DNA of 64,000 bases from Chloroflexota bacterium. Lineage in GTDB: Bacteria > Chloroflexota > UBA11872 > VXOZ01. The stretch is taken from positions 736,001 through 800,000 of the forward strand of contig OZ219802.1 of assembly GCA_964291655.2 (NCBI GenBank), read 5' to 3'. The notes beneath the pieces are model-generated. The model saw nothing but the letters and a program-made list of their open reading frames with translations. It was not told where the DNA came from and did not search any database. How positions within the stretch are numbered: position 1 is the stretch's first letter; each line of letters opens with the position of its first letter. Positions 11,075-64,000 of the stretch are shown in pieces. The position numbers and the translations under genes were made by a program.

Positions 11075-11240
11075 CCGTTCGCGCTGAGCCTACCTGTCCT
11101 GAGCACTTCGACAAGTTCAGCGCAGGCTTGATGAAGGGTCGAAGCGCAAGAACTCAGAAGACCGTTCGTCCTTAGCAACGAAAATCTCTTCCTCTCCACC
11201 CATCGACATGCTCAGAGCCTGCCCCGTACTCGATTCAGCA
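11075..11240. repeat. Triple-nested REP-like element plus a second interrupted copy
   Basis: ccgttcgcgctgagcct[acctgtcctgagc[acttcgacaagttcagcgcaggc]ttgatgaagg]gtcgaagcg at 11075-11146; atgctcag|agcctgccccgtactcgat with junction at 11215/11216. Confidence 0.8.
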
Positions 11241-11365
11241 TTTCGAGACGCTGCGGGGGTGGTCGGAATCGGTGCAGTGAAATGCTACGAGACACGGTCA
11301 GCGGATAGATCCGTTGGAACTCGTCTGCGCGAAAAGACCAGGCGGAATGGACAGCGGGAAACTTC

Positions 11366-17048: not shown

Positions 17049-17136
17049 CCCTTCGACAGGCCTGTACTGAGCTTGTCGAAGTGCTCAGGACGAACGGAAA
17101 AGGCATAAAACCGTTCGTGCTGAGCTTGTCGAAGCA
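17049..17136. repeat. Inverted pair of REP-like elements, left copy carrying a 23-nt insert
   Basis: cccttcgacag[gcctgtactgagcttgtcgaagt]gctcaggacgaacgg followed by ccgttcgtgctgagcttgtcgaagca. Confidence 0.85.
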
Positions 17137-50447: not shown

Positions 50448-51914
50448 TCAGACCTGGCGCAACTCTTCTTGCAGCTTCTGATTTACGATGCCGGGGTTTG
50501 CTTTGCCGCGCGTGGCCTTCATCACTTGACCGACCAAGAAGCCGACGGCCCGTTTCTTCCCCTGTTTAAAGTCTTGCACAGCGTCGGGGTTTTCCGCAAT
50601 AACCTGGGCCACGATTTCCCCGAGTGCATCCTCGTCGCTGATCTGTGCCAGACCTTGTTCCTCCACAATAGCGCGCGCACTCTTGCCCGTGTCAAACATC
50701 TGGTCGAAGACTTCCTGCGCCATACGGTTGCTGATCTCGCCAGACTCAATCATCAGAATCATATCGGCAAGCGCATCGGGCGTTATCTTGCAGTCGTTGA
50801 TCTCGCTGCCAGACTCATTAAGGCGTTGCAGCAGGTTGCGAAGCATCCAATTTGCTACGGACTTCGCATTCTTGGCGCGCGCCGACGCCGTCTCGAAATA
50901 CCCTGCCAAGTCACGAGTCTGCGTGAGCAGGGCAGCGTCGTAGGCTGAAAGATCGTAGGCGGTCATGAAGCGTTGCTGCCTTGCTCCCGGCAACTCAGGG
51001 AGCTTCCCTCTGACTCCCTCCACCCATTCCCGTGACAGTTGCAAGGGCGGGAGGTCCGGTTCGGGAAAGTAGCGGTAGTCGTGGGCTTCTTCTTTGGAGC
51101 GCTGCGATACCGTCTCGCCTGTTGTCTCTACCCAGCCGCGAGTTTCGGTCACGCGCGTGTCGGTGCCGCTCTCCAAAATGCGGGTCTGCCGCTCTTGCTC
51201 AAAGAGCAAGGCCCGCTCTACAGCGCGGAACGAGTTCATGTTCTTGACTTCCACCTTGATGTCGCCAAGAGGCGCGTCCGCCGGCCACACCGAGATGTTG
51301 GCGTCGCAGCGCATGGCGCCGTCTTCCATGTTGCCGGTGGAAATGCCGAGGTAACGCACGATTTGGCGCAGTTTGCGTCCCAGCGCCGCCGCCTCCTGCG
51401 GCGTGGTAATGTCCGGTTCCGTCACTACTTCCATGAGCGGCACCCCGGAGCGGTTGAAGTCAACCAGTGAATACCTTTCGCCGCTTGGCGCCGTCACGTG
51501 GGTCGACTTCGCCGTGTCCTCCTCTTGGTGAACTCGCGTAATCCCAATGTTGCGTCCGCCGTCTTCCTCGTCCAGTGCAAGGTTTCCTACTATGCAAAAC
51601 GGCAAGTCGTATTGTGAGATCTGATAGCCCTTGGGCAAATCGGGGTACGGATAGTTCTTGCGGTCGAACTTGGCGAATTCAGGTATCCGGCAATTCAGGG
51701 CCATGCCCGTCATCACGATGCACTCGATGACCTTCTCGTTGATGACCGGCAGGGCACCGGGTAGGCCGAGACAGACCGGGCAGACGACGGTATTAGGCGG
51801 ATGGGCGGCGTACTGCGCGCTGCATGCGCAGAACATCTTGCTCTCCGTCAAGAGTTGCACGTGGAATTCCAGACCGATAACGGTGCGGTATTTTTCTGCT
51901 ACGGCAGTTGCCAT
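50448..51914 (-). CDS. gatB: Asp/Glu-tRNA amidotransferase subunit B
   Basis: IGLEFHVQL, FDRKNY.YPDLPKGYQISQ, EED, NR.GVPL.E, R.DAN, R.KE.A.DYRYFPEPD. Confidence 0.98.
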   Translation of the reverse strand: MATAVAEKYRTVIGLEFHVQLLTESKMFCACSAQYAAHPPNTVVCPVCLGLPGALPVINEKVIECIVMTGMALNCRIPEFAKFDRKNYPYPDLPKGYQISQYDLPFCIVGNLALDEEDGGRNIGITRVHQEEDTAKSTHVTAPSGERYSLVDFNRSGVPLMEVVTEPDITTPQEAAALGRKLRQIVRYLGISTGNMEDGAMRCDANISVWPADAPLGDIKVEVKNMNSFRAVERALLFEQERQTRILESGTDTRVTETRGWVETTGETVSQRSKEEAHDYRYFPEPDLPPLQLSREWVEGVRGKLPELPGARQQRFMTAYDLSAYDAALLTQTRDLAGYFETASARAKNAKSVANWMLRNLLQRLNESGSEINDCKITPDALADMILMIESGEISNRMAQEVFDQMFDTGKSARAIVEEQGLAQISDEDALGEIVAQVIAENPDAVQDFKQGKKRAVGFLVGQVMKATRGKANPGIVNQKLQEELRQV

Positions 51915-51930
51915 TAATTTGCTCCCACGC

Positions 51931-52030
51931 TGGCGCAGAGTCTGCCCCGTACTCGTTACGGGGTTACAAACCTACAGTGCCTGGCGTGCCTTTCTTTCTC
52001 TGTAGCACAGGATATAAACCTGCGCTACCG
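51931..52030. repeat. GTAG-type REP remnants, one interrupted by a 24-nt module
   Basis: tggcgcag[agtctgccccgtactcgttacggg]gttacaaacctac; gtagcacaggatataaacctgcgctac. Confidence 0.7.
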
Positions 52031-52107
52031 GACGGTCCATTCTCACTGAATTACAAAGATGTGTCACTCATTGCACATGGCCGTTAGCGATCACGCGAAT
52101 GGCTACT

Positions 52108-53319
52108 CTACACTCGCGCGCGCTTGACGAAATTCGCGATTCGTTCCAGCGCTACTTCAATGTCTGCGGTCGGCACGGCATAGCACATGCGCACGTGGCC
52201 GTCGCCGCACGGGCCGAAAGCATCTCCCGCCACACAGGCGACGTGCTCTTCCTGTAACAAGCGTTCCGCGAACTCCTGAGACGAGAGTCCGGTCGAACGT
52301 ATGCTGGGGAAGCAGTAAAACGCGCCGTCCGGCTCCACGCAGTCAAGCCCCATATCATTCAAACCGTCAACGATTAGCGTACGCCGCTTGGTGTACTCGC
52401 TGAGCATCTGCTCGATGTCGGCCTCGCCGTGCCGCACGGCTTGCAGGGCCGCGTACTGGCTCATGGTCGGCGCGCACATCAGCACGTACTGGTGCACCTT
52501 CATGATGTATTCCAACACCGCGCTCGGTGCGGCCACATAGCCGATGCGCCAGCCGGTCATGGCGTAGGACTTCGAAAAGCCGCCAAGCAGGATGGTGCGG
52601 TCCCAGGCCCCGGGGAGAGCGCTAACGCACGTGTGCTCCATCGTGTAGGCAAGCCGCCCGTAGATCTCGTCGGAGAGCATGATGAGATTGTGCTTGCGAG
52701 CCAGGTCGACAATCTGCTCCCACTCCGCGCGGGGCAACATGGCCCCGGTCGGATTTGCCGGAAAGCCCAGTAACAATGCCTTGGTCCGCGGCGTGATCGC
52801 CGCGCTGATTTGCTCTGCCGTGATGCGGAAGTTGGTTTCCGCCGAACTGTTTATGCCAACCGGCTCACCGCCGGCGAATGTTATGCACGGACGGTACGAG
52901 ACATACGCGGGCTCCGGCACGATTACCTCATCGCCGGGATCGATCACGGCGCGCAAGGCAACGTCAACGGCTTCACTCACGCCGGCGGTAATGAGAATCT
53001 CTGTCTTTGGATCGTAGTCCGCACCATAGTGTTTGCTGAGATATTCCGCCACTGCCTCTCGTAACTCGATGATTCCGTAATTGGACGTGTAGTGAGTCTC
53101 GCCCTGGCCGAGCGAGTCTACTCCGGCTTGCAAGATATGTGCAGGGGTGACAAAGTCGGGCTCTCCTACACCGAGCGAGATGACGTCGTCCATGCTCGCA
53201 AGTATGTCGAAGAACTTGCGAATGCCGGAGGCCGGCACCTGTCGGACCCGGGACGACATCCTTCCGGTAACGTCGGCCTCAGTGGCCGTGCCTGTGCCTG
53301 TGATAGAGGATGCGGTCAT
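52108..53319 (-). CDS. Class I/II PLP-dependent aminotransferase (aspartate aminotransferase-like)
   Basis: GEPDF, NPTG, SDEIY, GFSKSYAMTGWRIG, GAFY; ATG overlaps the gatA stop (TAATG). Confidence 0.95.
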   Translation of the reverse strand: MTASSITGTGTATEADVTGRMSSRVRQVPASGIRKFFDILASMDDVISLGVGEPDFVTPAHILQAGVDSLGQGETHYTSNYGIIELREAVAEYLSKHYGADYDPKTEILITAGVSEAVDVALRAVIDPGDEVIVPEPAYVSYRPCITFAGGEPVGINSSAETNFRITAEQISAAITPRTKALLLGFPANPTGAMLPRAEWEQIVDLARKHNLIMLSDEIYGRLAYTMEHTCVSALPGAWDRTILLGGFSKSYAMTGWRIGYVAAPSAVLEYIMKVHQYVLMCAPTMSQYAALQAVRHGEADIEQMLSEYTKRRTLIVDGLNDMGLDCVEPDGAFYCFPSIRSTGLSSQEFAERLLQEEHVACVAGDAFGPCGDGHVRMCYAVPTADIEVALERIANFVKRARV

Positions 53320-54794
53320 TATTGTGGTGCTCCTTGAGAGAGGGCAGGTTTGTAGCGGTTGCCGCTCGCTTGTTCGTAGGCGTACGCCAGTCGCAAGAGC
53401 GTAGCCTCGTCGAACGGCTTGCCAATGAATTGCAGCCCGACGGGTAGTCCCTGCACGAGTCCGCACGGCTGGGAAATGCCGGGCAGGCCCGCGACGTTGC
53501 AGGGCAAGGTGTACAGGTCAGACAAGTACATGCTAATTGGGTCGTCAATCCGTTCGCCAATCTTGAAGGCAACGGTTGCGGACGTGGGGCACACGATGGC
53601 GTTTACACGCTCAAACGCCTGCTGGAAGTCCGCCGCGATCAGTGTTCGCACCTTCTGCGCCTTCAAATAATAGGCGTCGTAATATCCGCTGGAGAGCGCG
53701 TGGGTGCCGACGAGAATGCGCCGCTTCACCTCGGAGCCAAAGCCCCGGCCCCGTGTGCGGCTGTACGCTTCCCACATCGTCTCTGCTTTCTGATCTGAGT
53801 ATCCATATTTGATGCCGTCGTAGCGCGCCAAATTCGCGCTGGCTTCCGCCGGGGCGATAATGTAATACGTGGCGAGCGCATGGTCGGTGTGGGGCAGAGA
53901 AACGTCCTCAACCGCAACACCTAAATCAACCAACTGATCAATTGCCTGGCGAACCGACTGTTCGACTGCCGGGTCGGTGCCTGCGCCAAAATACTCACGC
54001 GGTACCCCAATCCGCAGTCCGCCGACATCCTGCTTCATCTCTTCCCGCCAATTTGGCACAGCTTGAGGGGCTGACGTGGCGTCACGGGGATCATGGCCGC
54101 AGATCGCTTCCAGCACCATGGCGCAGTCGGTGACGTCCTTCGTAAACGGTCCGATCTGGTCGAGCGAGGAAGCAAAAGCCACGAGACCGTACCGTGAAAC
54201 ACGGCCATAGGTTGGCTTCATGCCGACAACGCCGCAGAGGGCGGCCGGTTGCCGGATCGAACCGCCGGTGTCGGAGCCCAACGAAAAGATTGCTTCGTCA
54301 GCAGCAACCGCCGCTGCCGAACCGCCGCTGGAACCGCCCGGTACCCGATCGGTGTCCCACGGGTTGCGCGTGGTGAAAAAAGCCGAATGCTCCGTGCTGG
54401 AACCCATGGCGAATTCATCCATGTTCGTCTTGCCCACTAGCACGATGCCCTGCGCATTCAGTTTCTTCATAACGGTGGCATCATACGGAGGAACATAGTC
54501 CTCCAACATACGCGATGAACAGGTGGTGCGCACACCCTTCGTGCTCATCACGTCTTTAATGGCGGTCGGAATACCCAACAGGGGCGGCGCGTCCGCACCG
54601 TCCTGCGCGCGGCGTTCATCAGCCGCCTTTGCCTGTGCGCGGGCCCGGTCCGCAGTCACGGTGACGAAGGCTTGTACCCGCTCGTCCACAGCCTCGATTT
54701 GTGATAAGACCGCCTCAGTGAGCTCTACAGACGTAGTCTCACCACGGTTAAGCAGGTCTTGGGCCTCATGGACGGTCAGAGCAGTGAGGTTCAC
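53319..54794 (-). CDS. gatA: Asp/Glu-tRNA amidotransferase subunit A
   Basis: [52 protein letters not shown]. Confidence 0.98.
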
Positions 54795-54797
54795 AGA

Positions 54798-55109
54798 CTA
54801 GAAATCCAGGATGGCACGCACGCGGAACTGATCACCCTCGCGGTCCGGCGCATTGGCCAGAACCTCTTGTTCCGTTAGCGATGGTTCGACCGCGTCCGGC
54901 CGCATGACGTTTGTAAGGGGGATCACTTGCGCAGTCGGGGGAATCTGCTCAGTGTCCAAGGCACTGAGCTTCTGAAAGTGTTCAAACACTGCGCTAAGCT
55001 GATGTTGGAAGCGCTCCTCCTCTTCAGGGGAGAGCGCCAGCCGAGCCAAGTCAGCCACGTGCTGAACATCGGCTCGCGTTATAGTATCTGCGTCTTCTGC
55101 TGCTTTCAC
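54798..55109 (-). CDS. gatC: Asp/Glu-tRNA amidotransferase subunit C
   Basis: V.HVA.LARL, NVMRPD, LANAP, F.V..I; first gene of the gat operon. Confidence 0.95.
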   Translation of the reverse strand: MKAAEDADTITRADVQHVADLARLALSPEEEERFQHQLSAVFEHFQKLSALDTEQIPPTAQVIPLTNVMRPDAVEPSLTEQEVLANAPDREGDQFRVRAILDF

Positions 55110-55139
55110 AACGGCTTTGCCTTTCGTAGGTTCACCTCG

Positions 55140-55169
55140 ATTATACCGATTTCATGGGCCTACCCACAA
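55140..55169 (-). promoter_or_regulatory. Candidate sigma70 promoter for gatC
   Basis: Minus strand TTGTGG-N18-TATAAT about 30 nt upstream of the gatC start. Confidence 0.4.
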
Positions 55170-55355
55170 GGAATGCCAGGCATGACCGCGACTGTGGGTT
55201 TCTCATCGCTTAGCTTCTTCCGAACCTCGGGAAGTATACGACCTCTCCAGAATTGCTGTCCGTCTAACGGTCTGGCATACTGCACGAATTGCTGAACGCA
55301 CTCTTTCAATGGCGAGCGGTTTTCTCGCCATTCCAAACGTCCGGAGAGGGCAAAC

Positions 55356-55820
55356 ATGGAAGCTCCGCAGAAAATAGAACCGCAGTCTCTTGCCGACTAT
55401 CTCGAAGTCATGTGCAAGGCAGTCTTCCACAGCGGCATGTCGTGGGCCGTGGTGGAAGCAAAGTGGACCGACATCAAAGCGGCTATGCGCGACTTCGATC
55501 CGGTTGCGATTGCCTTCCTGAGCGAGAAAGAACTGGATGATCTGGCGCAGGACAAACGCGTCATCCGCAACCGCCGCAAGCTGGCGGCCATCATAAAGAA
55601 TGCACAGACGATGCGTGACCTGGAAGAGGAACACGGGAGTTTTCAAAACTACCTGCGCTCGCATGGCGGTTTCGAGCCCACCGTCAAGGACTTGTGCAAG
55701 CGCTTCGGCTTCCTCGGCGAGACCGGCGCATACTACTTCCTCTGGGTCGTCAACGAGGATGTACCTTCATACGAAGAGTGGTGCGCCTCCCGCGGACGCC
55801 AACCGCATGCCACCGGCTAG
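55356..55820 (+). CDS. DNA-3-methyladenine glycosylase I-like protein
   Basis: VF.SGMSW.VV..KW, FDP, IRNRRKL.A.I.NA, F.FLG. Confidence 0.85.
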   Translation: MEAPQKIEPQSLADYLEVMCKAVFHSGMSWAVVEAKWTDIKAAMRDFDPVAIAFLSEKELDDLAQDKRVIRNRRKLAAIIKNAQTMRDLEEEHGSFQNYLRSHGGFEPTVKDLCKRFGFLGETGAYYFLWVVNEDVPSYEEWCASRGRQPHATG

Positions 55821-55839
55821 AACCCCGGCTCACATGCCT

Positions 55840-56153
55840 CCGGTAGCGCAGGTTTGCAGCCTGCGCCCATTTGCACGACACCTTGTGGCGGCTTGTACTC
55901 AACTGTGGCGGTCGCAGTGAAAACCATTGGTGTCAGTGCCTTGCTTCTTGGTCCACCGTAGCGCGGGGGCTTGTCCCCCGCCAGAGCAAAGGGAAACAGG
56001 CACGAAAAGGATTGACCTTACAGGAACGCAGGTTGCAAACCTGCGCTACCGGGGATATGAGGCGTGGTGCTCGGCGCCATTATGTTTAATGTGACAACAT
56101 TGGGGTTGTCCCCCGCCTCTTGCCCTACCGTAGCGCGGGGGCTTGTCCCCCGC
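55840..56153. repeat. Cluster of GTAG-type REPs (two subfamilies)
   Basis: gtagcgcaggtttgcagcctgcgc and inverted gcaggttgcaaacctgcgctac; gtagcgcgggggcttgtcccccgc at 55958 and 56130, also at 63872. Confidence 0.85.
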
Positions 56154-56437
56154 CTCTCAATCTACCTCTGCGCCGGGGCTGGTCCGTCGCCTCCTGACAC
56201 AATCTGCGAACACCTTCCGGGCTTCTGGTACGACTCCCCGTCGCCGCGTGCTGCAATTCGAGAGTGCCGGAACCAATCCTCGTCGATCACGGTCATAAGG
56301 CCCCCATCGGCGCCATCGTCCCGCCCCGTCTCTGATGCGAAACGGCTAGCCCCCCAGGCCCTTGACACTATACACTCGCTTGTTTATTGTTTATTCAGAT
56401 TCACACCCCCATAGTACCGATAGAGGAGAAAGTAGCT

Positions 56438-57844
56438 ATGGATACGGGCAAGACTACTCACGTGTTTTCGCGCCGGCGATTTCTCGCTGGAGGTGCGGCA
56501 ACAGGCGGATTCTTGCTGATGGCTGCGTGTGGTGGTGGAAGCACAGGCGAAGCCATGCCTAAGGAGGAGATGGCGGAAGGTGAGGCGCCCAAAGAGGAAG
56601 CCAAACAGCCTGAGATGGAAAAGGTCACCTTGGTCTTCCGCGACTGGCGCCAGCCAGGCCGCACGGCGACGACATGGGAAGTCTGGTTCACTTGGGCGGA
56701 TGAAACCTTCCGCGAAGCGAATCCGCAGGTAGAGGCGGTAGAGTATTCGCACGTACCCTTTGGCGCAGAATACATTCAAAAGCTTACGACGGAATCCGCT
56801 GCACGCGTTACCGCCGACGTGGTGCATAGCTCCATCATATGGGGACGTGACCTGTGGGATAACGATATCCTCATGGATCTCACCGCACACGCCGCCACGA
56901 CCCCGGACGTTGGGGCCGACCAGTTCATGCCCAGCGCCAATCCCTATCGCATTGCGGATGGCAAAGTCTTTGGCCTCTCTTTCTGGGGCCCGGACTCCTA
57001 CGTGATGGTGATTAATCAGGACCACTATATAGATGCGGGTCTTGATCCCAAGGGCGAGGACCAGTTGACCTGGGAAGGCTTGGCTGCAACCGTGGAGAGG
57101 CTCTCCCGCAAGGATTCCGGCGGCAATTACTCACGCATCGGCTTTACCTATCACATTCCCGGCATGCCCGAATTTGCCGCCTGGCTTTACGCCAACGGCG
57201 GCGAAATGCACAACGCCGAGCTCACTGAAGCCATCTTCGACACGGCCCAGGCTCTGGAAGTAGCGGAGCACCGTCAAATACAGCACGTGCGCTACAAGGA
57301 CAGGGTTGAAGGCTTCCCGGGCAGTAACCTAGACATTCTCAAGGGAGGCCAAGGGTCCGGCATCTCCTGGGGTACCTGGGCCGCCTACTATGTCCGTGAC
57401 GAATTCCCCGAAGACTTCAATTTCTGGATGGTGCCTATGCCGCAGGGGCCAAGCACCGATGGTACGACCAGTGGCGCGACCTGGATAAACATGATGGTTG
57501 TGCCTGACGGTACGTCAAATCCAGACTTGGCATTTGAATTCAGCCGCTTCACGTGCGGCCTGGAGGCACAGGTGCAGAAGCTGCTCCTCGTCAACCAGGT
57601 CTCGCCGCGATTGGACTTCTACAACACGCCGGAGTGGACGAAAGCGGTGGAGGACCTGCCACAGCTCGGCGTCGTGCCCGACGTCGGTGCGAGAGGCAGG
57701 GCCTATCCGTTCTTTAGGCGCTACACGTCAGCCAATGAGCAATGGCAGATCGTGCGCGATGCCATGAGCGGTGAGAGCGAACTCGACCTGCGCGGCGCTC
57801 TGGCCGAGACCGTCAAGCTCATCTCCCAGGAGCTTGAAAGTTAG
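56438..57844 (+). CDS. Extracellular solute-binding lipoprotein, Tat signal
   Basis: SRRRFL..MAAC, DGKVFGL, TWE, PMPQGP; GAGGAG RBS. Confidence 0.88.
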   Translation: MDTGKTTHVFSRRRFLAGGAATGGFLLMAACGGGSTGEAMPKEEMAEGEAPKEEAKQPEMEKVTLVFRDWRQPGRTATTWEVWFTWADETFREANPQVEAVEYSHVPFGAEYIQKLTTESAARVTADVVHSSIIWGRDLWDNDILMDLTAHAATTPDVGADQFMPSANPYRIADGKVFGLSFWGPDSYVMVINQDHYIDAGLDPKGEDQLTWEGLAATVERLSRKDSGGNYSRIGFTYHIPGMPEFAAWLYANGGEMHNAELTEAIFDTAQALEVAEHRQIQHVRYKDRVEGFPGSNLDILKGGQGSGISWGTWAAYYVRDEFPEDFNFWMVPMPQGPSTDGTTSGATWINMMVVPDGTSNPDLAFEFSRFTCGLEAQVQKLLLVNQVSPRLDFYNTPEWTKAVEDLPQLGVVPDVGARGRAYPFFRRYTSANEQWQIVRDAMSGESELDLRGALAETVKLISQELES

Positions 57845-57900
57845 GCAAGGATTAAGGTCTCTCGCTCCCGCGTCAGCGAGAGCACAAACCTAGCCAATTG

Positions 57901-57946
57901 CAAACGGAGAGGCGGCGAACTTGCCGCCTCTCCGTTTGGCTTTTTG
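57901..57946 (+). terminator. Intrinsic terminator
   Basis: caaacggagaggcggc-gaactt-gccgcctctccgtttg then gctttttg. Confidence 0.85.
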
Positions 57947-57956
57947 ATTGGCTAGT

Positions 57957-58076
57957 CTAGCCTGTCGCACAGCACCCTGCGACAGGCTCAGCAAGATCGG
58001 CGCGTCATCAATCCCATTTGGCTTGAGTATTTCGGAGAGTTCACACGCTTCCGTTCGCCCTGAGCTTGTCGAAGGG
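57957..58076. repeat. REP-like elements
   Basis: agcctgtcgca..tgcgacaggct hairpin; ccgttcgccctgagcttgtcgaaggg at 58051-58076. Confidence 0.75.
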
Positions 58077-58140
58077 TGTATCCTTGCTAACGGATGGGAT
58101 AGAGCAGGAGACTCTCAGGTCTAAGGCGGGAGGCGCGACC

Positions 58141-58962
58141 ATGTCCTTCAAACTTGCCGTTGTTCAGATGGATTGCGTGCTCGGCGACGTGGCCGCCAAC
58201 CTTGCGCGCGCCAACAGCCTCGTGGCAGCCGCCGCGGCACAAGGCGCATCGGTGGCGGTGCTGCCGGAACTCGCGACCACCGGGTACTTCGTCGGCGACC
58301 GCATCGGCGCACTGGCGGAGCCTATCCCCGGTCCGACCACCGACGCACTCGGCCGGATCGCGCAGCGCCACCGGTGCTACATCATGGCCGGCATGATCGA
58401 GCAAGGCCAGGACTGCTTCTACAATAGCGCCGCCCTGCTCGCCCCGGACGGCAGCCTGCACGGGGCCTACCGCAAGGTCCACCTCTTTTCGGCTGAACGA
58501 GAGGCCTTCACTCCCGGCACCGAGCCGGCCCTGTTCGACATTGGCGGTACCCGCGTGGCGCTGACGATATGCTACGACCTCATATTCCCTGAGTACATTC
58601 GCCGTCTGGTCCTGGAAGGCGCTCAGGTCATCCTGAACAGCACCGACTGGATCACCAACGACTGGCAGCGCGGCCTGGGCTGGAGCGGCACGGTGGTAAG
58701 CGGCCTTGTGGCCACGCGCGCCTTGGAGAACACCGTGCACGTGGCCATGGCGGACCGCGTCGGCGTGGAAGAAGGCTGGAAGAGCCTGGGACACTCCTGC
58801 ATCGCAGCCCCCTCCGGCGGGCTTCTCGCCAAAGTCGACGAGGGCGAAGGGGTAGCCGTGGCGTCGCTGGAGCTCGATCACCCCGACTGGCAACAGTGGC
58901 GCACCGTAGCCACCTATTTGGACGACCGTCAACCAGATCTCTACACACCGAAAGAGGCGTAG
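58141..58962 (+). CDS. Carbon-nitrogen hydrolase (nitrilase superfamily)
   Basis: E-K-C triad: LPELA, YRKVHL, ICYDL.FPE; RALEN; GGAGG RBS. Confidence 0.93.
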   Translation: MSFKLAVVQMDCVLGDVAANLARANSLVAAAAAQGASVAVLPELATTGYFVGDRIGALAEPIPGPTTDALGRIAQRHRCYIMAGMIEQGQDCFYNSAALLAPDGSLHGAYRKVHLFSAEREAFTPGTEPALFDIGGTRVALTICYDLIFPEYIRRLVLEGAQVILNSTDWITNDWQRGLGWSGTVVSGLVATRALENTVHVAMADRVGVEEGWKSLGHSCIAAPSGGLLAKVDEGEGVAVASLELDHPDWQQWRTVATYLDDRQPDLYTPKEA

Positions 58963-58964
58963 CC

Positions 58965-60920
58965 GTGGACATTCGCACCTACCTTTCCAATGAAGCCAGG
59001 CGCATGCATGGGGAATCCTTGCAGGACTTGCCCGCGCCGGAAGACTGGGCGCAGGCCCGTGTGCAATGGCAGGCGCAGTACTACGAAATGATGGGCATCA
59101 CCTCCCACATGGCCTTGGTGGAGCGCCCGCCTTTGAACATGTGCGTGACCAAAGAGACGCAACGCGACGGCTACCGCATTCAGAACGTCTACTACGAAAG
59201 CCTGCCCGGACTCTACGTGACCGGCAACCTCTACTTGCCGACGAATGTCGACGGCCCCGTGCCCGGTGTGCTCTATGTCTGCGGTCACGCGCAGAAGCAA
59301 AAGGAGCACTATCAGGCGCATCCCCGCAAATTCGCCCAACTTGGCTTCGCCTGCTTGCTCGTGGAAACGATCCAGCTTGGCGAGATAGAGGGGCACCACC
59401 ACGGTACGTGCCATCGCGGCTGGTTCAATTGGTTCAGCCAAGGCTACACCCCCGCCGGTGTAGAGCTGTGGAACGGCGTGCGCGGCCTTGATTTGCTGGC
59501 GTCATTGCCGGAAGTGGACGGCGCGCGCCTGGGAGTCACCGGCATCTCGGGCGGCGGCGCGGTAAGCTGGTGGATTGCCGCGGCGGACGAACGCGTGAAG
59601 GTGGTAGCGCCGGTCTGCGGTACCGCGACGTTTGCTTCCCACGTGTGCGAGCGCACGCTAGACGGCCACTGCGACTGCATGTTCTTCGTCAACGCCTACG
59701 GCTGGGAGCTGGCCGACGTGGCGCGACTCATCGCGCCGCGCCCCATGCTTATCGGTTCCGCCAATCGCGACGGCATCTTTCACATCCGCTCAATCCGCGA
59801 GACCTTTGCGGGAATCAAGAAGATCTACGATCACGTGGGCGCGAGCGAGAACACTATCTTGATCGAGACGCCCGGCGGCCACTCTTACCACGCCAATTCG
59901 CGCCGCGGCATCTTCTCCTGGTTCCTGCGCTATCTCGCGGATAAGGACGTATCGCCGGAGGCAGCAGGCGACATTGACGACCGTCCGGAAGTGCAAGAGG
60001 ACGCGGCCACGCTTCGCGTCTATCAGAACGGCGTGCCCACGTCCGAGCGCGTCACGACTATTCACGAGGACTTTTTCACGCTGCCGGAACTGCCGAACAT
60101 TGTGACCGCAGACGAATTGGCGGCTGTCCGTGACAAGGCGCACGCCAAGCTTGCAGCGATGTCGTTCAGACACTTCCCCAGCACGCCAGGTACTTTAGAC
60201 GCGGAGGTAGAGTACGAGACCGGGCGCGGCGATGCGGTCGCTGGCGGCAGGTTTGCCTTCACGTCGGAAGGCGGCTGGCGGCTGCACGGGTCTTGGACGC
60301 TGCCGGAAGCAGATGCCGATGCACCGGCCGTCGTCGCGCTGCGTACGCCCCATGAGCCACGCCGCGCCACGGAAGACTGGCTGCAAGGCTTCGATAGCTC
60401 CTGGGCACGGGTGGTGGCAGAGCCGCGCGGCACCGGAGACAATGCCTGGGGCACGGAACTTGATTGGCACGTGCGCCGGGCGTGTATGCTCCTCGGCCGC
60501 ACCGTGGCGTCGATGCAGGTCTACGATACGCTGCGCGCCTTGGATGCCGTTGCACACCTGCCCGGTGTGGATAGCTCGCGGCTAGCGTTGGCCGGTCGCG
60601 GCCAGATGGCAGTGGTAGCGCTCTACGCGGCGCTGCTCCACGGCAACTTAGAAGCGCTCATTCTGAGCGATCTGCCGGAATCGCTGGCAGCGCACTCCAG
60701 CCCTGACGGCACCGGCATCGCCAGCGAAATCCTGTTTGCGCTCCAACACGCAGACCTGCCCCAAGCCGCCGGCCTCCTCTGGCCAATGGAACTGGTCTTC
60801 TTGGGTCCGCGCCCCGGCACCTTCGGCTGGACGGAAGATCTCTATAGCCGCCTCGGCAGCCCTGGCGCGATACGGCATGTGATGAATCTTGAGCAATGGC
60901 AGCCGGGTGCGGGGCGGTAG
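58965..60920 (+). CDS. Tandem alpha/beta hydrolase (acetylxylan-esterase-like)
   Basis: YES.PG..VTGNLY.P, CGH, nucleophile elbow GISGGG, IAPRP, GGH; second domain degenerate. Confidence 0.85.
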   Translation: MDIRTYLSNEARRMHGESLQDLPAPEDWAQARVQWQAQYYEMMGITSHMALVERPPLNMCVTKETQRDGYRIQNVYYESLPGLYVTGNLYLPTNVDGPVPGVLYVCGHAQKQKEHYQAHPRKFAQLGFACLLVETIQLGEIEGHHHGTCHRGWFNWFSQGYTPAGVELWNGVRGLDLLASLPEVDGARLGVTGISGGGAVSWWIAAADERVKVVAPVCGTATFASHVCERTLDGHCDCMFFVNAYGWELADVARLIAPRPMLIGSANRDGIFHIRSIRETFAGIKKIYDHVGASENTILIETPGGHSYHANSRRGIFSWFLRYLADKDVSPEAAGDIDDRPEVQEDAATLRVYQNGVPTSERVTTIHEDFFTLPELPNIVTADELAAVRDKAHAKLAAMSFRHFPSTPGTLDAEVEYETGRGDAVAGGRFAFTSEGGWRLHGSWTLPEADADAPAVVALRTPHEPRRATEDWLQGFDSSWARVVAEPRGTGDNAWGTELDWHVRRACMLLGRTVASMQVYDTLRALDAVAHLPGVDSSRLALAGRGQMAVVALYAALLHGNLEALILSDLPESLAAHSSPDGTGIASEILFALQHADLPQAAGLLWPMELVFLGPRPGTFGWTEDLYSRLGSPGAIRHVMNLEQWQPGAGR

Positions 60921-61009
60921 CGTTTGAGGAAAGCCAGAGTCTAGCGATGTGCCCTGCATTACGAGTATAGGGTCTATACTATTAAGGGTACAACGTTCGG
61001 ATACGATGT

Positions 61010-61318
61010 ATGCTTGACAGAATTCGGGCCCAAGTACGCAACAATGAAATACGACTTACCCAGCACGCTCTGCAGGAAATGGCTGAGGAGCAAGTCTCGC
61101 TCGATGAGACTTTGGTGGCACTATCTCAAGGGCAAGTGTTGGAGAACTACCCGCAGCACCGCAGGGGTGCGTGTTGCCTGATTTGCGGTTTTACGCGGTC
61201 GGGGCGGGTCTTGCATGTCGTTTGCACGACGGCTCTTCCCGTTCTCATCATTATTACAGTGTATGAACCTACGTCGCCCAAGTGGGTAACCCCATGGCAG
61301 AGAGGGCAAGCGACATGA
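61010..61318 (+). CDS. DUF4258 family protein (putative toxin)
   Basis: TQHA..EM, G.VLENYP, CLI.G, LHVV, IITVYEP..KW. Confidence 0.85.
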   Translation: MLDRIRAQVRNNEIRLTQHALQEMAEEQVSLDETLVALSQGQVLENYPQHRRGACCLICGFTRSGRVLHVVCTTALPVLIIITVYEPTSPKWVTPWQRGQAT

Positions 61319-61539
61319 AGTGCAGCATTCAGGGCTGTCCTGGTGAATACGAAGCGAAACGCATCGTACACACCGTGCGGAGCGAAGGGCAAGTAATTGT
61401 CATCGACCACGTGCCGGCTGAGGTGTGTGCAATCTGTGGCGACACGCTGCTCCATCTAGACACAGTGCGCAAGGTCGAAACGCTCATACAACAAAAGGGT
61501 CAGCCGGCGAACAGCGTCCCCTTGTATGAGTTCGCATAG
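61315..61539 (+). CDS. YgiT-type zinc finger protein (putative antitoxin)
   Basis: MKCSIQGC..VPAEVCAICG; ATGA overlap with the DUF4258 gene. Confidence 0.87.
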   Translation: MKCSIQGCPGEYEAKRIVHTVRSEGQVIVIDHVPAEVCAICGDTLLHLDTVRKVETLIQQKGQPANSVPLYEFA

Positions 61540-61764
61540 AGTGCGCACGCGCCAATAGGGCGCGAAGTGCTGGGCAAGAGTGAGGCGCTGCCGCTTAGTC
61601 GCGGAGCCCGCCAATGGAATAATGCCTGTTGAGTGGCAAGTCAGACGTATCCGACTCTTTCGCGCCTGCTAGCGGCGTGTTGTCCTCCCTCGCTCCTTTT
61701 TTTACCCCACCTCCTGGAATCCCTACTGCCCAAGCGGCCCCTGCCGGGCCTGAAGTCAAAGGGT

Positions 61765-62039
61765 CGTCACTCCGGCGAGAGCCGGAGTCCAGACAACAAC
61801 CGGCGGAAGAGAAGATGGATTCCCGCCTACGCGGGAATCACCATGGCCTTGCCCAGGCCGCACAAGGGAATGAAAGTGAGTTCCGATATCTCCGTTCGTG
61901 CTGAGCACTTCGGCAAGCTCAGTACAGGCTTGTCGAAGCATGAACGGAGAGATGAGTGTCGCAAGCTCTTAACCGCTTCCGCCGCTCACCCTTCGACGAT
62001 GCTCAGAGCCTGCCCCGTACCGGATACGGGGGCGAACGG
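61765..62039. repeat. Composite repeat cluster: CGTC-type REP pair plus two interrupted REP-like elements
   Basis: cgtcactccggcgagagccggagtccag / tggattcccgcctacgcgggaatcac; ccgttcgtgctgagc[23 nt]ttgtcgaagca; cccttcgacgatgctcag[24 nt]ggcgaacgg. Confidence 0.85.
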
Positions 62040-62087
62040 CAAGACCGCTTGTTTTCATGGCAATGACGAGCGCACGCGCGCTGATGG

Positions 62088-63575
62088 TTATGGCCGCCTA
62101 TCCGGCACCACGTGGCCTTCCGGGTTCGGCCACTGGAATGAGCCCTCTTGCATGTTTTCCAGAGCGCTCAGCACCGTTTGCGGGCCTTCTTGCGCCACTT
62201 TCTTCAACGGATCAGGCCAGCCCTGGAGTTGCTCCTCTTCCCACTGCCAGAGGTGGTATTCCAGGTCCCGCGTGACTTCGACGTTTGCATCCGCCACGTT
62301 GGCTTCCTCACGCGGATCGTTGGCCAGATCAAAGAGCTGAGTCAGCGGCCAGTTCATCAATCCGCCGTGGTAGCTCTTGGTAAGTTTCCAGTCGTGACCA
62401 TCGGCGGCGCCGATGGTGCGGATCGCCCGTTGCGCCGACCATAGGCCATGCTCCAAGTACACGTAGTCGCGTCGCGGCTGCGGTTCCGGCTCGCCGCGCA
62501 GCATCTCCAGGAGCGAGCGTCCCTGCCACTTCGCCGGCGCATCGAGACCGGCGACCGCGCAGAGCGTGGGACCCAGGTCTAAGGTGTAGCTTGCGGCATC
62601 CACCACCGTCTCTGGTCGGATCCCACCACTCGGCCAGCGGGCGAGCATCCAGATGTGGGCATCGGTCTCGTAGACGCCCCAGTGATCGCCGTAGACGCTG
62701 TGTTCGCCTTGATTCTCGCCGTGATCGGTAGCGGCAATGATGAGGGTATCATCCAGAATACCTGCTGCCTCTAACGCATCCAGCAGCCGCCCGACGTACT
62801 CATCGCAATAGGCGATCTCCGCATCATACATCGCCATCCAGTAATCGAAATCTTCCTTGCCCCGGATGCGGTGCGAACCGGCGGAGTTCGGCATATGAGC
62901 GTAGCGCTCGGCGTCATCTTTGATCCGCTCGTCGGACGGCCAGTCAGGCGGCGGGTAGGTAAGCATCTTGTCCACATACGCTTGCGGCGCTTTGTACGAT
63001 TGGTGTGGGTCCCAGTAGTGGACGTAGAGGAAGAAATCGTCCTGCGCGTGGTCTTGCAGCCAAGCAAGAGCAGAAGCCGTGATCTCCGGCGCTTCCACGT
63101 TGCTATGCCCCAAATGCCACTGCGGACGGTAGTACGCATTCCAGCCCATGCGGAACCAGGGTGCCTGGTCGCCGAACGTCGAGACCGCCGCCGTACGCAA
63201 GCCTGCCTCCCCCTTCTGCTCAGCCAGATACTGCTGCACCTGCGGCGCGCGACTGCCGATGGGAGGAAACGTCGGTCCAGCGTAGCGGGTATCTTGCTCC
63301 CAAGGCTTGGTGTCCAATTCGCCTGCCGGCCGTCCATAGTCGCCGACTATCTGTGCCCTCTCGCCGTGCGTGAGCAGTCCGGTCTTGATACCCCAGCGAC
63401 CGGTGAATATGCTCGCCCGCGCGGGCACGCAGGGCGTATCAGCGGCGTACATGTTAGTAAAACGCGCGCCTTCCCGCGCCAGCCGGTCAAGATGCGGCGT
63501 CGTCGGCCGCTCGTAGCCATAGCAGCCCAAGTGATCGCGGCGCAGGGAATCAATATCGATGTAAAGTACTTTCAT
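62088..63575 (-). CDS. Formylglycine-dependent sulfatase family protein
   Basis: DIDSLR.DH, CxPxR motif TPCVPARASIFTG, YWDPH, TDHGE, LFDL..DP.E. Confidence 0.93.
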   Translation of the reverse strand: MKVLYIDIDSLRRDHLGCYGYERPTTPHLDRLAREGARFTNMYAADTPCVPARASIFTGRWGIKTGLLTHGERAQIVGDYGRPAGELDTKPWEQDTRYAGPTFPPIGSRAPQVQQYLAEQKGEAGLRTAAVSTFGDQAPWFRMGWNAYYRPQWHLGHSNVEAPEITASALAWLQDHAQDDFFLYVHYWDPHQSYKAPQAYVDKMLTYPPPDWPSDERIKDDAERYAHMPNSAGSHRIRGKEDFDYWMAMYDAEIAYCDEYVGRLLDALEAAGILDDTLIIAATDHGENQGEHSVYGDHWGVYETDAHIWMLARWPSGGIRPETVVDAASYTLDLGPTLCAVAGLDAPAKWQGRSLLEMLRGEPEPQPRRDYVYLEHGLWSAQRAIRTIGAADGHDWKLTKSYHGGLMNWPLTQLFDLANDPREEANVADANVEVTRDLEYHLWQWEEEQLQGWPDPLKKVAQEGPQTVLSALENMQEGSFQWPNPEGHVVPDRRP

Positions 63576-63628
63576 CTTCGACTCTTCTTAGCACCCAGTC
63601 CCGTTTTTGTAGGCCTCAGTCCCATTTA

Positions 63629-63950
63629 TGTCATTTCGAGCGCAGCGAGAAATCTAGAACTCCATGCACTCCAGTGGTTCAACAACTTAGTCCTAAAGCA
63701 TAGCCGAACTTAGCGCGATACCTCGATAACGTCGCGTACGGCGCAGGTCGCAAACATGTCCTGAGCACTTCGGCAGGCCTGTGCTGAGCCTGTCGAATGG
63801 CCTGCGCTACCGGATGCCTGGCAGCGACCCCAGGGTCCGCGCCATGTATCAGCACTCCGCCGGTCACATCGTAGCGCGGGGGCTTGTCCCCCGCCTGGAA
63901 TGGAACCTAATGCGCTGAAGCCGATAGATTCCCGTCTACGCCGGTATGAC
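63629..63950. repeat. Composite repeat cluster (CGTC-type, GTAG-type and nested modules)
   Basis: tgtcatttcgagcgcagcgagaaatct; gcgcaggtcgcaa[...]cctgcgctac; gtagcgcgggggcttgtcccccgc; tagattcccgtctacgccggtatgac. Confidence 0.8.
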
Positions 63951-64000
63951 CGTCGTCTCCTTGCCTTCACGCAGCGCCACCGCATCGGCAATCATACGGT

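Follow-up and report, generated by a model that had tools for sequence, protein, structure and literature searches.

Within the window, a stretch of 64,000 nt (G000:C2:736001-800000, in a 3.47-Mb Chloroflexota genome of two contigs, G000), a GTAG-type REP is interrupted by a 24-nt hairpin-forming module, and a related copy splits a different repeat family about 10 kb downstream. The question raised by this locus is how so short a sequence, which contains no gene, came to lie at a fixed point inside unrelated repeats. The analysis presented here indicates that the module is probably a non-autonomous, site-preferring ultra-small mobile element that is moved in trans, and that its behaviour is that of one of the smallest known mobile DNA elements.

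The consensus of the module comprises a leader, AGCCTG (6 nt), followed by CCCCGTA, a 5-nt loop CnnGA and TACGGG, 24 nt in total, and its 7-bp stem is completed by the next base of the host, a G. Folding as single-stranded DNA gave this 7-bp stem and 5-nt loop on either strand (-7.3 and -7.6 kcal/mol, z about -2.2), in agreement with the ccccgta/tacgggg-type hairpin closed by the following host G that had been proposed in the initial annotation, whose positions for the two short copies, the copy at 11216 and the uninterrupted comparison site are exact (Table 1). The copy at 11216 had been read as a damaged 24-nt module; it is actually a decayed 42-nt variant with 18 additional nucleotides inside the hairpin. 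A pattern search of the window returned 2 module matches against 0.01 expected, and two or more matches were reached in 0/100 shuffles. Among the module copies, the leader and the loop-closing bases C8, G11 and A12 are conserved at the level of the stem, which fits sequence-specific recognition at the time of copying, and loop positions 9-10 vary freely.

Table 1. Features of the window and of contigs C1 and C2 of G000 that are discussed in the text (positions without a contig name are those of the window; ^ marks the junction between host and module).
Feature	Position	Strand	Remark
24-nt module, short form, agtctgccccgtactcgttacggg	51939-51962	+	leader AGTCTG; stem CCCCGTA/TACGGG with host G 51963; loop CTCGT
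Host D repeat (GTAG-type REP), left half, ...ctggcgcag^	51930-51938	+	uninterrupted gcgcag^gttacaaacctacgctacc in congeners
Host D repeat, right half, ^gttacaaacctac	51963-51975	+	split by the module at 51939-51962
24-nt module, short form, agcctgccccgtaccggatacggg	62007-62030	+	identical to consensus; loop CCGGA; empty in the closest relative, G008
Host A repeat, left half, ccttcgacgatgctcag^	61990-62006	+	ends gatgctcag before the module at 62007-62030
Host A repeat, right half, ^ggcgaacgg	62031-62039	+	start of the next hairpin
42-nt module variant (24 nt + internal 18-nt unit), decayed	11216-11257	+	after ...catgctcag
Empty host D copy, gcag^gttgcaaacctgcgctac (gcag^gttgcaaacctgcg)	56028-56049	+	comparison site of the initial annotation
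Second module, ~23 nt, AGCCTG start (agcctgtactgagcttgccgaag type)	11106-11128	-	
Second module, ~23 nt	17059-17081	+	
Second module, ~23 nt	61908-61930	-	
Second module, ~23 nt	63776-63798	+	
Small GIY-YIG gene, Ssn type, ~90-100 aa	C2:1711914-1712132	+	inverted SRM-like hairpins around the gene
Small GIY-YIG gene, Ssn type, ~90-100 aa	C2:1259810-1260028	-	inverted SRM-like hairpins around the gene; upstream hairpin with a different ~20-nt palindrome in its loop
Small GIY-YIG gene, Ssn type, ~90-100 aa	C1:823705-823920	+	inverted SRM-like hairpins around the gene
RAYT-like Y1 gene (L158)	C2:2523481-2523714	-	own REP (gggaacgcgggcgtcccgcccgcatc type), three direct copies before and one inverted after

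Genome-wide, G000 contains 118 copies of the module, namely 92 short (24 nt) and 26 long ones (41-43 nt), and 45 hairpins with a perfect stem. Five host repeat families, within each of which the junction is constant, hold 104/118 copies: host B, a G-tract hairpin (gggagagggttag^ggtgaggg; 54/118 copies), host A (cttcgacaggctcag^ggcgaacgg; 25/118), host D, a GTAG REP (gcgcag^gttgcaaacctgcgc; 13/118), host C (gtcattccggcgaaa^gccggaatcc; 9/118) and host E (3/118), the other 14/118 copies lying outside these families. Taking out exactly 24 nt regenerates the dominant empty form of each of hosts A-D, and alternative junctions, one base shorter or shifted, gave 0 and 1 matches in the genome. Empty host copies are abundant in G000 (168 B, 135 C, 105 A and 95 D), and these counts bear out the earlier proposal that the module sits in unrelated host families and that its excision restores the host. 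The checks set beforehand were run and found both enrichment of a target motif in the flanks and restoration of the host by excision.

Two of the hosts belong to known repeat classes. Indeed, in the scheme set out in sections of Di Nocera et al. 2013 (PMC3733652), hosts D and C are REPs tagged GTAG and CGTC, respectively, so that the module is in these cases a passenger in repeats that were already known. Host C also fits the NTS/SRM motif CGTCATTCC...GGAATCC, and in G000 each of the three small GIY-YIG genes lies between inverted copies of it. The bulk of the copies in G000 arose as the host repeats themselves were amplified and not by independent insertion, and loop variants follow host subfamilies (e.g. 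GT in 18/39 short host B copies); true insertion events in this genome may therefore be few. Only one inverted close pair of true copies (81-nt gap) was found among neighbouring copies no more than 4 kb apart, copies being otherwise single, and a search for a master copy revealed no pair of G000 module copies that brackets a candidate gene.

The precision of the junctions is accompanied by a preference for a short target. In G000, the junctions read CAG^G (hosts A and D), TAG^G (host B) and AAA^G or AAG^G (host C), and a G follows the module in 106/118 copies under a pattern that does not force this base. Beyond this genome, the matches listed were de-duplicated into 81 contexts from 148 sites in species-representative genomes and 56 contexts from 126 metagenome sites, and the same target logo was obtained from both of these sets. 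Among these listed matches, (i) position t-3 is G in just 7/81 and 4/56 contexts (11/137), (ii) t-2 is A in 59/81 and 35/56, (iii) t-1 is G in 56/81 and 40/56 and otherwise mostly A, (iv) the first A of the module is kept in 76/81 and 48/56, and (v) the base following the host G is G or T in 60/81 and 49/56. The landing site is about HAG^GK (not-G, A and G before the module), sometimes AA^G or AT^G. The host-independent CAG^G target of the initial annotation was thus a real preference that holds across hosts, drawn too tightly, the logos supporting the looser HAG^G. Filled and empty sites differ by exactly 24 nt, and target-site duplication is absent.

The junctions show microhomology (AG^AG... 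and ...GGG^G), as would be expected if no dedicated machinery were involved and the copies arose by template switching or fold-back synthesis together with ectopic gene conversion via AG/G microhomology, host palindromes growing and shrinking in the same manner. Such an origin is unlikely: 2 + 1 bases of microhomology should not yield identical ends in 81 + 56 unrelated contexts, among the matches listed, across phyla, and the avoidance of G at t-3 in the same contexts is not predicted by microhomology. Inserts in unique coding sequence, with exact 24-nt gaps, also speak against it.

Indeed, the module carries no stop codon in five of its six frames and therefore survives in frame inside genes; a stop arises in one frame only, with T at the second variable loop position (L074, L123). 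Among the matches listed, a frame is open across the whole 324-nt locus in 23/81 genome contexts. Of these 23 open frames, 14 were submitted to Pfam, and in-frame inserts were found in DDE_3 (three loci), HTH_32, DDE_Tnp_IS66 (two loci), a tRNA-ligase anticodon domain, Response_reg and Cob_adeno_trans, the remaining submitted frames giving one weak UvrD match and four frames without a family. Three different module sites occur within IS630-like genes, and homologous IS630-like DDE_3 genes carry the module at two places, each of which is empty in the other gene, with exact 24-nt gaps. In G000, the module is in frame in a helicase gene (Helicase_C), where it reads AVN[SLPRTGYW]GNG, and a second module site of the helicase gene is filled in the L129 orthologue and empty in G000.

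Several of the individual contexts can be described further. In locus L029 (uncultured Pseudoxanthomonas), a host-type repeat together with the module is in frame in the anticodon-binding domain of a tRNA-ligase gene; L135 and L031 are loci at which a gene for cobalamin adenosyltransferase, also with a host-type repeat, and a response-regulator gene have taken up the module in frame. A mobile-looking island of G000 (C1: ~345,000-358,500) encodes Helicase_C and Rad52/22-family proteins, and both of its module copies are matched in Dehalococcoidia (L129, L102). The copy at C1:357754 was considered as a master copy and rejected: it lies just after the ATG of a short ORF upstream of the Rad52-like gene, is also present in L102 and is simply another insertion.

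Filled and empty states were also found at orthologous positions. At the 51939 REP site, 16 genomes of the genus including G000 comprise 6 filled (G000, G008, G001, G006, G012 and G016), 9 empty (gcgcag^gttacaaacc) and 1 not assignable. In a tree built from 2.6 kb of flanking genes, the filled genomes fall within a 7-genome clade that includes one empty genome (G003, with a shortened spacer), a pattern that corresponds to one gain and one loss or to two gains. Each of the six orthologous copies has followed its own course of divergence. At 62007, G008 shows the empty form (tactcag^ggcgtacgg), with flanks that are 93-97% identical; the G000 copy resembles a paralogue with the same loop (C1:650509), and the difference between the two genomes could be due to gene conversion from this paralogue, a resemblance that again favours recombination as the origin of copies. 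Comparison of G000 with G008 at five additional sites showed the module in both genomes each time, with a different number of inner units at one site; two others in these regions were unmatched. Taking all sites that are comparable between the two genomes, 51939 and 62007 included, 5/7 are unchanged, so that current activity is low or absent.

In assembled public contigs, the 51939 copy is unchanged in three samples of one study, and no 24-nt skip was found at 51939 or 62007 in such contigs, in which empty alleles of low frequency would not be visible. Contigs of public assemblies from the same organism end at the repeat stacks of the window (61911-62030 and 55958-56064), where many foreign contigs pile up. 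The possibility of an adapter or assembly artefact was rejected, as the copies are internal in closed genomes, are inherited at orthologous sites and show lineage-specific decay.

The distribution of the module is patchy. With at most one mismatch, it occurs in 23/41 related genomes (16/16 in the genus, 5/7 in a second family, 1/6 in a third family and 0 in three others), with 4-62 copies in each of the 16 congeners, and the pattern read backwards gave 0 matches in the 41 related genomes and in 401 genomes of the phylum. In this even sample of the phylum, the exact module is present in 24/401 genomes and 5/217 genera. Genera differ sharply in this respect: the module is carried by 10/10 genomes of g1, 9/9 of g8 (with up to 77 copies in a genome) and 2/3 of g12, and by 0/16 of g10 and 0/5 of g4. 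An exact-match scan of one genome per species returned at least 140 loci, many of them in Dehalococcoidia. Among the matches listed, exact copies are found in records titled Pseudoxanthomonas (two cultured strains), Methylococcales, Nitrosomonadales, Syntrophaceae, Desulfatiglans, Thermodesulfobacteriota, Saprospiraceae, Brocadiaceae and Entotheonella. A corresponding metagenome scan returned at least 122 loci. Viral contigs gave 2 exact matches only, and carriage by phages is not favoured for this reason. In a Nitrosomonadales MAG (L025), the module and a 22-nt spacer are tandemly repeated with a period of 46 nt. Same-orientation arrays in Dehalococcoidia were considered as integron attC sites; this reading was rejected, the arrays being intergenic stacks of SRM and other repeats.

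Could the module itself be immobile, a few ancient accidents in repeats or insertion sequences having been followed by amplification of the carriers and by horizontal transfer? The 104/118 copies held by five hosts, the loop variants linked to host subfamilies and the low turnover between G000 and G008 would agree with this explanation, as would several cross-phylum contexts that are of the same host types (SRM loops, a G-tract hairpin + TTAG, ttcgac...ctcag) or are transposase genes; indeed, a host hairpin, mostly of the SRM/NTS type, encloses the module in 21/81 genome contexts among the matches listed. It is nevertheless quite improbable, since the distinct contexts are too many: among the matches listed, a recognised host type or hairpin is absent in 54/81 genome contexts and 23/81 are open frames, and both context sets share a consistent 4-nt target motif. 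The three sites in IS630-like genes argue in the same direction, as does a genus-specific long variant that is present in at least three hosts.

This long variant deserves separate consideration. The 42-nt form is the short form with 18 additional nucleotides after ...CGATAC, in the layout CGATAC-AGC-GTATCG-ACA-CGATAC, and the inner 18-nt unit can iterate, giving 60-nt forms; the number of inner units differs between G000 and its closest relative G008 (41 vs 58 nt at one site). The direct-inverted-direct layout is the one expected of a fold-back event. In host A, moreover, the leader of the module is an inverted copy of the host's own CAGGCT, which would allow a fold-back origin. At L230:6188-6211 (G044:C2), a module has the left flank of host B and the right flank of an SRM, which points to recombination between different repeat families through the shared 24 nt. 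Layout, iterated unit, inverted CAGGCT and chimeric copy all count in favour of an origin without dedicated machinery, and fold-back synthesis and recombination clearly also shape these repeats, as seen in the long variant, the iterated units and the L230 chimera. The variant is genus-specific (13/16 congeners, 0/25 other relatives). At the standard junction it is present in 7 copies in host A, 15 in host B and 4 in E/other, and transfer of the module from one host family to another must therefore have taken place after the origin of the genus. Gene conversion is unlikely to account for this transfer, since the sequence common to long copies of different hosts extends only 3 nt beyond the extra unit on its right side.

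Selection might be suspected of maintaining the module at all its sites as a functional cis element (for example a protein-binding site, a terminator or an RNA hairpin), because the 22 fixed positions are exact across phyla and because 36/92 short copies of G000 match the consensus at all 22 of them. This is extremely improbable. In a compensatory test, 32/81 mutated pair cells were still paired against 31 +/- 1.5 in shuffles, i.e. no compensatory excess in the stem, and orthologous copies decay freely. The module occurs on either strand and inside coding sequence, where it sometimes adds a stop (L074/L123). Furthermore, no U-tract follows the 51939 and 62007 copies, and no Rfam match was obtained in window positions 51000-64000 at E up to 1. 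Copies decay neutrally after insertion.

The preferred reading, mobility of the module itself, would involve the following steps. The module would be copied to new sites with fixed ends and without target duplication, preferentially between (not-G)AG and G. As it has no gene, it must be moved in trans, and the most likely agent would be a putative enzyme that recognises the leader and the hairpin in single-stranded DNA, in the way that HUH/Y1 enzymes act on the ends of IS200/IS605 elements and on REPs. Transposase genes with the module in frame may be its vehicles from one genome to another. Within a host repeat of high copy number, it is then multiplied along with its host, and its copies decay neutrally.

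No mobilising enzyme was tied to the module: genes for Y1/RAYT, Ssn-type GIY-YIG and TnpB do not travel with it. In brief, (i) the only Y1/RAYT-like gene of G000 (Table 1) lies between copies of a different REP, the module is missing from the 1.5 kb around it and was found within 1.5 kb of Y1-like genes at 0/8 loci, and no Y1_Tnp match was obtained in G039 (53-77 module copies, 96% complete) or in G033; (ii) the module is absent from the flanks of small Ssn-type GIY-YIG genes in 11 genomes (G000 and ten others), these flanks being empty SRM hairpins, and no small GIY-YIG match was obtained in G033; (iii) no TnpB match was obtained in G000; and (iv) among 150 of the 273 ORFs of at least 90 aa located within 400 nt of metagenomic copies, among the matches listed, 0/150 matched GIY-YIG and 0/150 matched Y1_Tnp, these neighbours being a miscellany. 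The (A)GCCTG start that had been assumed to be a shared mobilisation signal is a candidate for such a signal: the leader is conserved like the stem and recurs in another AGCCTG-led hairpin (L201), but no enzyme was tied to it.

The CCTG of the leader is complementary to the CAG^G target. This complementarity would fit a target guide encoded by the element and is only a lead. Leader variants AGCTTG and AGTCTG keep CAG^G targets, so that covariation between leader and target is not supported, in a comparison that is weakened by mutation after insertion. A broader reading, according to which the module is a complete 24-nt transposition substrate, a single hairpin read by a widespread putative ssDNA enzyme with CCTG pairing to CAG^G as a self-encoded guide, is doubtful. 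If it were true, the module would be the smallest guided mobile element known and would offer a handle on the movement of REP-like repeats, and hairpins led by AGCCTG would join GTAG and CGTC as a third superfamily of tagged REPs.

By analogy, the module seems in kind to most resemble the small dispersed repeats (SDRs) of Nostocaceae and in action single-strand insertion of the IS200/IS605 type. It shares with the SDRs their size class, high copy number, non-coding nature, hairpin formation, nesting in repeats and short preferred motif, with a mobilising agent assigned to neither; indeed, it is 24 nt long, has 118 copies in G000, is embedded in five hosts and has an 18-nt unit nested in its hairpin. 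SDR1-8 of Nostocaceae are reportedly 21-27 nt long, with structures said to be backed by compensatory changes, whereas the module hairpin has no compensatory support. The SDRs are a matter of one cyanobacterial family, whereas the module is found in Chloroflexota and other phyla, is exact across phyla and occurs in frame in genes; its sequence is probably different from that of SDR1-8. Reference passages of PMC3116915 list the SDR work of Elhai et al. 2008, and a passage of PMC5861425 gives HIP1 as the insertion site of SDR5 and states that SDRs are found only in Nostocaceae.

Like IS200/IS605 elements, the module inserts 3' of a short fixed motif without target duplication and has ends defined by a hairpin and not by inverted repeats. 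These elements have two subterminal hairpins and TnpA and/or TnpB, whereas the module is one hairpin with no gene and no associated Y1 gene. The lagging-strand bias of IS200/IS605 was not seen in the orientations of the module (55:46 and 7:10 on the two contigs of G000), in a comparison that is weak because GC skew gave no clear origin or terminus for these contigs. Unlike MITEs, with their terminal inverted repeats and target-site duplication, the module has no duplication and leaves a gap of exactly 24 nt. Rickettsia palindromic elements are ~100-150 bp long and are known only from Rickettsia, whereas the module is 24 nt long and crosses phyla. The likeness to these elements lies in palindromic selfish DNA that is tolerated in frame in genes, as sections of PMC3733652 relate.

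REP/REPIN elements, paired with RAYT (Y1 HUH) transposases and comprising the GTAG and CGTC superfamilies according to portions of PMC3116915 and PMC3733652, resemble the module in having a short conserved tag next to a GC-rich hairpin, in being dispersed and in being non-coding. The differences are that its tag is AGCCTG and not GTAG/CGTC, that its copies appear to be mostly single and not doublets, and that no RAYT gene is flanked by it; the GTAG (host D) and CGTC (host C) REPs are here targets and not the mover. The relevant parts of PMC3733652 describe these two tag classes, REPs inside other palindromes and in frame in genes, and loops of some REPs with inner self-complementary inserts of up to 27 bp. 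In the SRM/NTS-Ssn system, the CGTC tag, the ATTCC...GGAAT palindrome and the C-tail that bracket GIY-YIG genes correspond to host C and not to the module. As reported in main-text passages of Chenal et al. 2025 (PMC11893778), NTS/Ssn motifs go together with SsnA-type GIY-YIG ssDNA nucleases, and these motifs require no particular loop sequence and tolerate longer loops; the harmlessness of a module placed there is thereby explained. No mention of inserts such as the module in SRM loops was found in those passages, and a literature search found no published description of the module sequence; the supplements of PMC11893778 might list SRM loop variants.

How very small palindromic repeats spread in bacteria is a decades-old question. 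To our knowledge, a candidate transposase exists for GTAG REPs alone; for the CGTC/SRM class a nuclease is known, but no route of spread. The question becomes testable with a unit that has sharp ends, a target motif, sites in both the filled and the empty state, a marker variant, and copies in distant phyla, cultured Pseudoxanthomonas strains among them. The practical effects of such inserts, which annotation pipelines do not recognise, are that eight residues are added to proteins, repeats and transposase genes are split, recombination between unrelated repeats is seeded and assemblies are broken.

Other AGCCTG-led sequences occur beside the 24-nt module. The second module, of ~23 nt, is present in 4 copies in the window (Table 1) against 0 expected, and the (a)gcctg start that had been noted as common to both modules is confirmed. 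It contains an inverted copy of the cttcgacaggctcag of host A, and in G008 a ~23-nt AGCCTG-led module occupies the host A copy that is orthologous to 62007, a few bases upstream of the empty junction. Upstream of a small GIY-YIG gene in locus L201 (G044:C2:106493-109714), an SRM loop holds another AGCCTG-led hairpin (agcctgcccccgtgcagacggggg), which suggests, from its leader, a family of leader-sharing modules.
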